This document shows positions 124-2,082 of a DNA stretch of 2,082 nucleotides, piece by piece. Source of the stretch: Escherichia coli (GTDB lineage: Bacteria > Pseudomonadota > Gammaproteobacteria > Enterobacterales > Enterobacteriaceae). The position numbers and the translations under genes were made by a program. Every line of letters begins with the position of its first letter. Position 1 is the stretch's first letter. Below the pieces are notes generated by a model. That model saw nothing but the letters and a program-made list of their open reading frames with translations. It was not told where the DNA came from and searched no databases. The stretch lies in assembly GCF_003334765.1 (NCBI RefSeq), contig NZ_QOWT01000074.1; one strand, 5' to 3'.

Positions 124-324
124 TCACCAGCTACACAGTATACACACACTGACGCTGACAGTAGTCAGCAGGACCACAATAATCAGCGCCAGCAGTATGG
201 TAACGATACGGTCTGTATTCCGGTAGTAGCCGAAGGGGTCGACAGAACCACAATACGGGCAACACACTGTATTATGAGTAATCGCGTTTCCACAGTCCCT
301 GCACTTCTTTTTGCGTATCACCAT
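124..324 (-). CDS. Small zinc-ribbon protein with a C-terminal transmembrane helix (about 66 aa), function unknown
   Basis: ORF track 124..327 (-). The translation has a CxxC-x9-CCxxC zinc-ribbon pattern (CRDCGNAITHNTVCCPYCGS) followed by an uninterrupted hydrophobic stretch (IVTILLALIIVVLLTTVSVSVCILC), consistent with a single-pass or tail-anchored membrane protein. On the minus strand an AGGAGG Shine-Dalgarno (plus coordinates 335..330) sits 5 nt upstream of the ATG at 324..322, so I prefer the ATG at 324 over the GTG at 327. Not assigned to a named family. Confidence 0.6.
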   Translation of the reverse strand: MVIRKKKCRDCGNAITHNTVCCPYCGSVDPFGYYRNTDRIVTILLALIIVVLLTTVSVSVCILCSW

Positions 325-327
325 CAC

Positions 328-523: not shown

Positions 524-1093
524 ATGACCTACAAATACAACCCCTTCTGGCAGCAACGTATTCGTGAGACGGTGCGGCACGCACTGAATGTTCATCCCCG
601 CCTGACGGCATTGCGGGTTGACCTGCGTCTCCCGGATGTACCGGCAGCAACGGACGCAGCTGTGATATCCCGCTTCATCAATGCCCTGAAAGCCCGAATC
701 GACGCTTACCAGAAACGTAAGCATCGGGAAGGTAAACGCGTGCATCCCACAACCCTGCATTACGTCTGGGCCCGGGAGTTTGGGGAGTGCAAAGGTAAAA
801 AACACTATCACCTGATGCTGCTGGTCAACCGGGATACCTGGTGTCGTGCCGGTGATTACCGCGCTCCGGAGTCTCTGGCCGGGATGATTAAACAGGCGTG
901 GTGCAGTGCCCTGGGAGTGGATGTCGGGTGCCATGCCACGCTGGTGCATTTCCCGGCCTGGCCGGCGGTGTGGCTGGAACGCGATGATGACACTGGCTTT
1001 CAGCAGGTGCTGGAACGTGCTGACTATCTGGCGAAGGAACATACCAAAGCTCACTGCACCGGTGAGCGCAATTTTGGCTGTAGCCGGAGTTGA
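524..1093 (+). CDS. YagK/YfjJ family protein (Pfam 'Inovirus Gp2'-like), putative replication-initiation or nicking protein of a mobile element
   Basis: ORF track 488..1093 (+). I recognise the overall sequence character (N-terminal MTYKYNPFW..., HYVWAREFGE, KKHYHLMLLVNRD) as the YagK/YfjJ family found in E. coli cryptic prophages CP4-6 and CP4-57; this is from memory, not a search. HYHLMLL at 803..823 resembles an HUH-type motif. Start preferred at ATG 524 (GGAG at 511..514, 9-nt spacer) rather than GTG 488, which would add 12 residues and place the 497..513 palindrome inside the coding sequence. Stop TGA at 1091..1093. Confidence 0.8.
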   Translation: MTYKYNPFWQQRIRETVRHALNVHPRLTALRVDLRLPDVPAATDAAVISRFINALKARIDAYQKRKHREGKRVHPTTLHYVWAREFGECKGKKHYHLMLLVNRDTWCRAGDYRAPESLAGMIKQAWCSALGVDVGCHATLVHFPAWPAVWLERDDDTGFQQVLERADYLAKEHTKAHCTGERNFGCSRS

Positions 1094-1193: not shown

Positions 1194-1346
1194 TTCCATT
1201 GTGTGACAACCACAGTGCTGTAACAGCAACCAGCCTGCTTTACCCAAACTCCAGTCCAGATTTTAACTGAACCGCCATTCACACCCTGACCACGCTGCCC
1301 GTACCGGGACGGCTGTTGCCTGCGTGTCGTCTGGCGGCTGAGGTAT

Positions 1347-1754
1347 ATGACTATGTACGCAAAATCCTTTATCGCTCTTGATGGCAACGGACGTCTGACG
1401 GGCGCCCGTACTGCACAGGCCGCACCTTATGCTAACTACACCTGCCACTTGTGTGGCAGTGCACTCAGATACCATCCGCAATACGAAACTGAACTTCCCT
1501 GGTTTGAACACACTGACGACAGGCTGACAGAGCACGGTCAACAGTGCCCTTATGTCAGGCCGGAGCGCAGAGAAATACAGTTGATTAAACGTCTGCAGCA
1601 ATTCGTACCGGATGCCTTACCCGTGGTGCGTAAAGCCAGCTGGCACTGCAGACAATGTCACCACGATTATTATGGGGAGCAGTACTGCACACACTGCCAG
1701 ACCGGAGGATTCAGTATTCCCCGGACAACTCAGGAGGAAATATGCGAATTCTGA
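1347..1754 (+). CDS. Cys-rich putative zinc-ribbon protein (135 aa; paralog A of a tandem pair), function unknown
   Basis: ORF track 1347..1754 (+). Conserved pattern C-HL-C-GS...PWFEH...C...W-H-C-RQ-C-xx-DYYGE-xx-C. The CxxC-x14-[W/H]F[A/E]H spacing recalls the N-terminal zinc ribbon of CoiA-like competence proteins (CxxC...HFAH); that is a motif-level resemblance only. GAGG at 1340..1343 is 3 nt from ATG 1347 but 9 nt from the in-frame ATG at 1353, so the true start may be 1353. Stop TGA at 1752..1754. Confidence 0.65.
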   Translation: MTMYAKSFIALDGNGRLTGARTAQAAPYANYTCHLCGSALRYHPQYETELPWFEHTDDRLTEHGQQCPYVRPERREIQLIKRLQQFVPDALPVVRKASWHCRQCHHDYYGEQYCTHCQTGGFSIPRTTQEEICEF

Positions 1755-2082
1755 ACTGTTATATGGCGAATGACAGCAAAGGCCATTTTGTTACGGCGAA
1801 AGAAGCTGCGAAGCACAACCGACAGGACGTTTTGTGCTGTGTGTCCTGTGGATGCCCGTTAACACTTCAGCGGGGCAATGACGGACAACCACCGTGGTTT
1901 GAACATGACCAGATGACTGTCGCTGAAAAAATCCTGCTGCGATGTACCTGGCTTGACCCGGCAGAGAAAGAGGCCCGTCGTTTGCATCTGCAGGGCATGA
2001 CGGTTCCGGATTATACGGTGAAGGTGAGAAAGTGGTTTTGTGTGATGTGTGACGAAGATTATGAGGGGGAAAAGTGCTGCCC
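1742..2082 (+). CDS. Cys-rich putative zinc-ribbon protein (paralog B; 3' end truncated by the window), function unknown
   Basis: Translating by hand from ATG 1742 gives MRILNCYMANDSKGHFVTAKEAAKHNRQDVLCCVSCGCPLTLQRGNDGQPPWFEHDQMTVAEKILLRCTWLDPAEKEARRLHLQGMTVPDYTVKVRKWFCVMCDEDYEGEKCC..., open to the window end. It aligns with paralog A at A-x-D-x-x-G-x-x-T-x-A-x-x-A, CxxCG, PWFEH, VPD...VRK, W-x-CxxC-xx-DY-x-GE-xx-C. AGGAGG at 1732..1737 precedes the ATG. The start overlaps the 3' end of paralog A by 13 nt in a different frame. An alternative in-frame ATG lies at 1763. Confidence 0.6.
   Translation, partial: MRILNCYMANDSKGHFVTAKEAAKHNRQDVLCCVSCGCPLTLQRGNDGQPPWFEHDQMTVAEKILLRCTWLDPAEKEARRLHLQGMTVPDYTVKVRKWFCVMCDEDYEGEKCC

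Follow-up and report, generated by a model that had tools for sequence, protein, structure and literature searches.

Two adjacent genes for small cysteine-rich proteins, here called A and B, lie on the plus strand of a 2,082-nt stretch of Escherichia coli DNA (contig NZ_QOWT01000074.1, assembly GCF_003334765.1), where they follow a gene of the YagK/YfjJ type. The whole stretch, at its full length, is referred to as the window. RefSeq, as annotated by PGAP, has four genes under it, namely a small minus-strand hypothetical gene and genes for an 'inovirus Gp2 family protein' (hereafter Gp2), a 'putative zinc ribbon protein' and a 'zinc-ribbon domain-containing protein'. The features of the window are listed below, with positions counted from its first letter; all zinc ligands are proposed ones.

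1353..1754, plus strand: gene A, 133 aa, with domains DUF7828 and Zn_ribbon_11; an in-frame alternative ATG lies at 1347
1356..1613, plus strand: module 1 of gene A, DUF7828, residues 2-87 (Pfam E 5e-31); proposed CCHC ligands C31 (1443-1445), C34 (1452-1454), H53 of PWFEH (1509-1511) and C65 (1545-1547)
1632..1730, plus strand: module 2 of gene A, Zn_ribbon_11, residues 94-126 (Pfam E 8e-9); proposed ligands C99, C102, C112 and C115
1732..1754, plus strand: A/B junction, with AGGAGG at 1732-1737 within the end of A, the ATG of B at 1742 and a 13-nt overlap of the two genes at 1742-1754
1742..2082, plus strand: gene B, codons 1-113 of 144, with the remainder outside the window; DUF7828 at residues 4-89 (1751-2008) and Zn_ribbon_11 at residues 93-128 (from 2018); proposed ligands C33, C36, H55 and C68, then C100, C103 and C113, with C116 past the window end
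1264..1343, plus strand: non-coding block directly 5' of gene A, core at 1295-1337 (CTGCCCGTACCGGGACGGCTGTTGCCTGCGTGTCGTCTGGCGG), Shine-Dalgarno GAGG at 1340-1343
524..1093, plus strand: YagK/YfjJ-type ('inovirus Gp2 family') gene, 189 aa, assigned by Pfam, motifs and PGAP
124-327, minus strand: small open reading frame (ORF) of 66-67 aa, hypothetical protein WP_001297219.1

The conserved start of gene A is the second ATG at position 1353 (MYAKSF...), the same start as chosen by PGAP and seen in the orthologs; the RefSeq accessions for its protein are WP_000270962/WP_000270978 ('putative zinc ribbon protein'). Gene B starts at 1742, four bases past the AGGAGG sequence at 1732-1737. Although the window cuts B short, an E. 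coli chromosome that is 99.6% identical (locus L001; L and P numbers denote the loci and proteins compared in this work) carries it as an intact coding sequence (CDS) of 144 aa at L001:16742-17176, and the full-length gene is also found in L004. Thus, B is neither a stub nor a pseudogene, which answers a question left by an earlier, sequence-only reading of this DNA.

Both proteins are full members of a catalogued DUF7828 + Zn_ribbon_11 family, and the genes are therefore not new as objects. The sequence-only reading could not place them in a named family, a statement that has to be withdrawn: besides being annotated in RefSeq, A matches DUF7828 (PF25165) with E 5.2e-31 over model positions 1-87 of 87 and Zn_ribbon_11 (PF11682, formerly DUF3279) with E 8.4e-9, while the corresponding values for B are E 9.3e-31 (positions 2-86 of 87) and, for the full-length protein, E 2.4e-18. 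Its description of the two genes as a tandem pair of diverged paralogs, about a third identical, was sound, since BLASTP aligns A and B over 109 residues with 29% identity and an E value of 8e-13, and the similarity hence holds under alignment statistics. The same is true for the ordered motif set and the two Cys/His modules described for each protein, for which conservation was scored on an alignment of 40 divergent family members (B numbering). Hereby, the columns C33, C36, F53, H55 and C100 are invariant, and C68, W98, C103, Y107, G109, C113, C116 and G119 are at least 90% conserved. The resulting motif layout consists of CxxC, (P)WFEH and a further Cys, which form a CCHC site, followed by a ribbon of the type CxxC-x9-CxxC. 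Because this Cys/His pattern is conserved and B is modelled confidently by AlphaFold (predicted local distance difference test, pLDDT, 87.7; predicted template modelling score, pTM, 0.57), each protein probably holds two structural zinc ions, one in the CCHC site around PWFEH and one in the four-Cys ribbon.

The family is small, amounting in a set of 1.84 billion proteins to 274 cluster representatives at E values up to 1e-3, and its named members stem nearly all from Enterobacterales. A few sequences listed under Collinsella, Veillonella and Pseudomonas (including P. aeruginosa) share 96-98% identity with the E. coli genes and have the appearance of contaminants or mis-binned DNA. With a profile made of DUF7828 only, 164 matches were obtained that show just two architectures, DUF7828 alone or DUF7828 + Zn_ribbon_11. 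Many members in UniProt/AFDB bear the name 'DNA-directed RNA polymerase, beta subunit/140 kD subunit', which is almost certainly a propagated error and probably explained by weak matches to the RPB12/RpoP zinc ribbons; one UniProt member is named 'Competence protein', and many truncated or frameshifted copies of the family are found in the databases. Neither NCBIfam nor a PHROGs scan yielded a family for A or B. Sequence searches of the PDB, carried out with a single sequence and with the DUF7828 profile, returned just non-significant zinc-ribbon matches, and Foldseek against AFDB50 retrieved the A/B family itself and nothing else. Literature searches on the Pfam names and the protein names yielded no relevant paper, and neither Pfam family was mentioned. 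The A/B family is not phage-borne: no match to A or B was found by tblastn in 50,697 phage records, and two were found in the 2.9 million viral contigs of IMG/VR.

Orthologous copies of A and B are present in at least six other genera, mostly with the same overlap of 13 nt, as in the Klebsiella plasmid, Hafnia, Superficieibacter, Yokenella and Salmonella; in Serratia oryzae and Pseudocitrobacter it measures 10 nt. On the Klebsiella IncFIB/IncHI1B plasmid the first protein of the pair starts with MYAKSFMALDGNGRLTGA and the second with MRMLKCYLANDREGHF, which makes the first an ortholog of A and the second one of B. Across genera, identity is 59-70% among A orthologs and 47-53% among B orthologs, compared to 29% for A against B. 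The duplication is old, and A and B have both been retained. Both are under purifying selection, with ratios of non-synonymous to synonymous substitution rates (dN/dS) of 0.13-0.28 for orthologous pairs of A and 0.08-0.23 for those of B. The conserved overlap of the two genes suggests that their translation is coupled and that the products may form a joint complex. Where only one zinc gene is present, as in Raoultella, Entomohabitans, Kosakonia, Cedecea, Klebsiella oxytoca, Budvicia, Proteus/Morganella and a Cronobacter-type locus, it is in all cases of the B type. Hence, B represents the universal form and A an added partner.

Some further family members were noted alongside these orthologs. 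A third E. coli paralog type starts with MNGIKTGLGITPGEH (P0032, P0033, P0038, P0040, P0047, P0052, P0055, P0081), and many E. coli proteins are mosaics of MNGIKTGLGITPGEH-type and B parts joined at differing points, which stem either from true recombination between copies of the island or from chimeric assembly of these repeats. Just 5' of the A-type gene of Serratia oryzae and Pseudocitrobacter, a short ORF of 46-55 aa encodes only a Zn_ribbon_11-type ribbon (L013:18-185, L017:6410-6550) and may be a third mini-paralog. In P0072 (238 aa), a DUF7828-like unit lacking the C-terminal ribbon stands ahead of a complete B-type protein, which may reflect a tandem fusion or a mis-called start.

To place the zinc genes in their genomic context, loci were annotated with our own profiles and precomputed Pfam matches. 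These loci had been found with a single peptide pattern (PWFEHDQ), which biases the scan to B-type relatives, and from a few proteins picked by hand. In all 19 of the 19 non-E. coli loci with enough upstream DNA, a Gp2-type gene, an AlpA/helix-turn-helix (HTH) gene and one or two zinc genes follow one another in this order and in the same orientation. The set covers Klebsiella, Raoultella, Entomohabitans, Kosakonia, Cedecea, Hafnia, Superficieibacter, Yokenella, Pseudocitrobacter, Budvicia, Serratia, Proteus/Morganella and Salmonella as well as Cronobacter-type and metagenomic loci. The zinc genes are often followed by a second, degenerate Gp2-like gene and sometimes by a DUF2913 gene. Beyond these the content is variable and comprises restriction-modification (L027), type VI secretion (L020), Rhs toxins (L021) or SMEK_N/CTD10 together with MC6 and DUF2326 (L023), and in E. 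coli an IS66 element or catabolic genes. Since the zinc genes keep a fixed position after Gp2/AlpA in every locus (>10 genera) and the variable cargo starts later, they are backbone and not cargo. A and B belong to the core backbone of AlpA-regulated integrative islands, which are very common in enterobacteria. The E. coli form departs from the usual order only in having no AlpA-type gene between Gp2 and A; here, 260 nt separate A from the Gp2 gene upstream of it, and an alpA remnant, which was sought between the two genes within the window, was not found. Independent support for the backbone assignment comes from a study of Pseudomonas islands, in which a Gp2-like gene and alpA are counted among the likely core functions of the element (PMC12595487). 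In a paper on PIMEs, the integrative mobilizable elements of Pseudomonadota, Gp2 and the zinc proteins both go unmentioned.

The module is not restricted to chromosomal islands, as it is also borne by conjugative IncFIB/IncHI1B plasmids of roughly 340 kb, among them the NDM-1 plasmid NZ_CP082986.1 of Klebsiella. Here, the whole module of Gp2, AlpA, zinc A, zinc B, a second Gp2-like gene (Gp2b) and DUF2913 occupies positions 66239-69637 (L003). In E. coli itself the window is widespread: its 2082 bases are matched in 3816 of 5426 complete genomes (~70%), hereby in a median of two and up to six places per matching genome. At least 80% of the window is held by 3205 complete genomes, and at least 80% of the A+B DNA by 2992. 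The E. coli island with A and B also contains Ag43, a YeeP-like GTPase, YfjI and Hha. About 350 bp past B, an IS66-family element is followed by a phytase-like esterase gene (L001:17531-19440; L004:11185-13344), an order that agrees with the published table of the Shigella SRL island. The O145:H28 island (L005) has no IS66 element at that site after B and carries different genes there. In the CP4-6 and CP4-44 regions of K-12 MG1655 no copy of A or B was found, and only yagK matches Gp2, at 40%.

The identity of the upstream neighbour as a YagK/YfjJ-type gene, already recognised in the sequence-only reading, is confirmed by Pfam, with a match to YagK_YfjJ_C at E 6e-48 and a weaker one to REP_ORF2-G2P at E 5e-5. 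The Gp2 protein of the window contains the motifs LRVDL, HYHLMLL (HUH-like) and YLAK, and equivalents of these (RVDL, H-x-H and Y-[LM]-x-K) are kept by the upstream Gp2 copy of every locus. We take the combination of LRVDL, HYH and YLAK to be the motif set of HUH-type rolling-circle initiators. Judged by these motifs, the Gp2 of the window is replication-initiator-like (HUH-type) and a predicted nickase. The second Gp2-like gene, 3' of the zinc genes (L003:8493-9059; L014-L016, about 7426-8061; L025:4861-5403; L020:8423-9586), has lost both H-x-H and Y-x-x-K, and its product is probably inactive.

A further connection between the zinc proteins and Gp2 is found in six protein clusters of 454-468 aa with 45-52% mutual identity (P0167, P0196-P0200; the named ones are from Serratia). 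In these fusions DUF7828 and Zn_ribbon_11 form the N-terminal part, while the last 300 residues can be aligned over the full length of the neighbouring YagK_YfjJ protein with E 5e-23. The AlphaFold model of one fusion reaches a pLDDT of 79 and a pTM of 0.65. The fused Gp2-like region is degenerate as well, having lost H-x-H and the Tyr-Lys motif, and the fusion loci keep the usual order of Gp2, AlpA and zinc gene. A relationship of the P0167 C-terminus to the Klebsiella Gp2b was considered and dropped (BLASTP E 1.3); the upstream neighbour of P0167 itself is matched significantly. A conserved fusion together with an invariant gene order is a classic sign of proteins that act together.

A further conserved element is the non-coding block of about 80 nt at 1264-1343. 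E. coli and the Klebsiella plasmid share it almost unchanged, although their flanking coding DNA is just 71-79% identical, and across genera it is more conserved than the zinc genes themselves. Its core, GGGACGG-N5-GCCTGC-RTGTCRT..., is recognisable in 16 of 17 aligned loci. Hereby, the block occurs once per locus and always about 45 nt 5' of the first zinc gene. Its role may be that of an operator, a promoter or a leader for A and B, or else that of a site for Gp2 or the zinc proteins. A structured-RNA leader was considered and rejected, as the RNAalifold consensus reaches just -1.6 kcal/mol and the enclosing stems are no longer than those in shuffled sequence; an Rfam scan of the whole window gave no match.

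The invariant gene order and the natural fusion tie the zinc proteins to Gp2. The reading that we tentatively prefer, with a probability of roughly 0.4, is that A and B are zinc-dependent partner subunits of the island's Gp2/AlpA module and function in replication or mobilisation. The zinc proteins would attach to the Gp2-type protein and perhaps also to a particular DNA site. Their task would be to direct or regulate nicking and replication of the island after its excision, or its mobilisation. The A-type protein would be an old extra copy, made together with B from overlapping and probably translationally coupled genes, and would likely act with B as a hetero-oligomer.

Several observations weigh against this proposal. 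Given the PWFEHDQ pattern and the hand-picked proteins used to find the loci, the synteny sample is not a random one. Because the fused and the downstream Gp2 copies are degenerate, the link to an active nickase is indirect. Moreover, the existence of solo B-type genes means that an A-B heteromer cannot be obligatory. Finally, the isoelectric points (pI) of A and B are 6.7-6.9 and the family has a median pI of about 7.6 at a net charge of about +1; such near-neutral values would be unlike those of a strong DNA binder.

A wider version of the same idea, which we regard as speculative and rather improbable as a whole, makes the zinc proteins specificity or switch subunits of an undescribed life-cycle module of the islands. 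After AlpA-driven excision, a complex of B, or of A and B, would bring the HUH-type Gp2 nickase to a defined site or license it there, whereupon the islands would be replicated or mobilised as rolling circles; the block before A would serve as the feedback point. If true, this would explain the spread of CP4-57-, CP4-44- and SRL-type islands, which are usually deemed immobile remnants.

Among the other explanations, the one that survives best, although we consider it unlikely, sees A and B as small zinc-finger regulators of transcription or translation that act, like Ogr or Delta, on island genes, adjacent cargo or a helper element. The block upstream of A would then be the zinc proteins' own operator or leader, and such a role fits with its presence, as a single copy ahead of the first zinc gene, in 16 of 17 loci and with its being better conserved than the genes. 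It also fits with the small size and the two predicted zinc sites of the proteins, their position after an AlpA-type regulator and the weak profile matches to the RPB12/RpoP zinc ribbons (E 0.1). These matches are non-significant, however, and Pfam Ogr_Delta is matched by neither A nor B even at E values up to 10. In addition, the proteins are neutral in charge, and the recurrent fusion partner is a Gp2-like domain instead of a DNA-binding or sigma-like one.

We give still less credence to a role in defence or anti-defence, in which the pair would be cargo of the island and its two products would work as a sensor or an inhibitor. The sequence-only reading had framed the pair as candidate accessory or defence cargo, and defence-type genes do lie directly downstream in some loci (the restriction-modification genes of L027 and the SMEK_N/CTD10, MC6 and DUF2326 genes of L023). 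This framing is not supported by the analysis: in a scan of PADLOC-DB 2.0 A has no match and the best one of B is non-significant (E 0.064), and in every locus the zinc genes are fixed on the backbone side of the cargo boundary, beyond which the content varies. The fusion to a Gp2-like domain in Serratia and the occurrence of the same module on large IncHI1B/IncFIB plasmids likewise speak against it.

Equally improbable, in our view, is that A and B are CoiA-like DNA-processing adaptors, with DUF7828 as a true homolog of the CoiA N-terminal domain that would steer incoming or excised single-stranded DNA into recombination. The order of motifs is indeed the same (a beta strand, A-x-D-x-x-G, CxxC, aromatic-F-x-H and Cys), and the UniProt entry named 'Competence protein' would fit. 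The CoiA_N profile (PF25164), however, matches B with E 0.39 and the Serratia fusion P0167 with E 0.1, both below significance, and is not listed for A, in agreement with the sequence-only reading, which had called the likeness one of motifs only. The CoiA nuclease domain is absent, and the 164 DUF7828 profile matches comprise no more than the two architectures given above. That A and B are decaying, functionless remnants is effectively refuted, despite the many truncated or frameshifted database copies and the IS elements nearby, by the dN/dS values of 0.08-0.28 for both genes, by intact CDSs in the examined E. coli genomes together with the 2992 genomes that hold at least 80% of the A+B DNA, and by ligand residues conserved across genera.

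Databases already list and annotate the genes as such; new here are their place in the island backbone, the fusion with Gp2 and the conserved block before A, which taken together provide a testable hypothesis for a very common protein pair. For the two protein families, both of unknown function, the placement in the backbone and the tie to Gp2 offer the idea to be tested. Besides E. coli, the family is represented in Salmonella, Klebsiella, Serratia and Proteus and on large resistance plasmids. The backbone placement also bears on how islands with adhesins, toxins and defence systems replicate or move. At the same time two misleading labels are corrected, the UniProt name 'RNA polymerase beta subunit' and the expectation of defence cargo.

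In the product of the remaining gene of the window, the minus-strand ORF at 124-327, a CxxC...CxxC knuckle precedes a hydrophobic, membrane-like tail. This small protein is kept in the E. coli islands L004 and L005 and matches phage families of unknown function (phrog_38187, E 2.5e-5) as well as, weakly, a rubrerythrin-like domain (E 0.005).

Compared to known systems, A and B resemble the N-terminal domain of CoiA in motif order, with a zinc-type site composed of CxxC, F-x-H and a Cys. A feature of the CoiA family is a central nuclease domain of the PD-(D/E)XK type (PMC1189080). By Pfam such a domain is found neither in A (133 aa) nor in B (144 aa), both of which are covered fully by their two zinc modules. 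Furthermore, CoiA is a competence gene, whereas A and B are set in mobile islands. With the RPB12/RpoP zinc ribbons they share a CxxC knuckle and a beta hairpin, and the matches extend over only ~25 residues with non-significant E values of 0.1-0.8. HUH enzymes such as the IS91-family transposases and Helitron Rep have zinc-binding accessory domains. In contrast to these, the A/B zinc module is mostly a separate protein, and the HUH-like domain to which it is fused lacks the catalytic motifs. Ogr of phage P2 and Delta of P4 are zinc proteins that activate late genes, and Delta consists of two Ogr-like units in tandem. A and B differ from them in the spacing of their sites and in the lack of a Pfam Ogr_Delta match, and Ogr and Delta are free-standing, whereas the Serratia fusions join an A/B-type zinc module to a Gp2-like domain. 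Nevertheless, both groups consist of small Cys-rich zinc proteins in P4-type elements, and the duplicated unit of Delta echoes the A-B pair.

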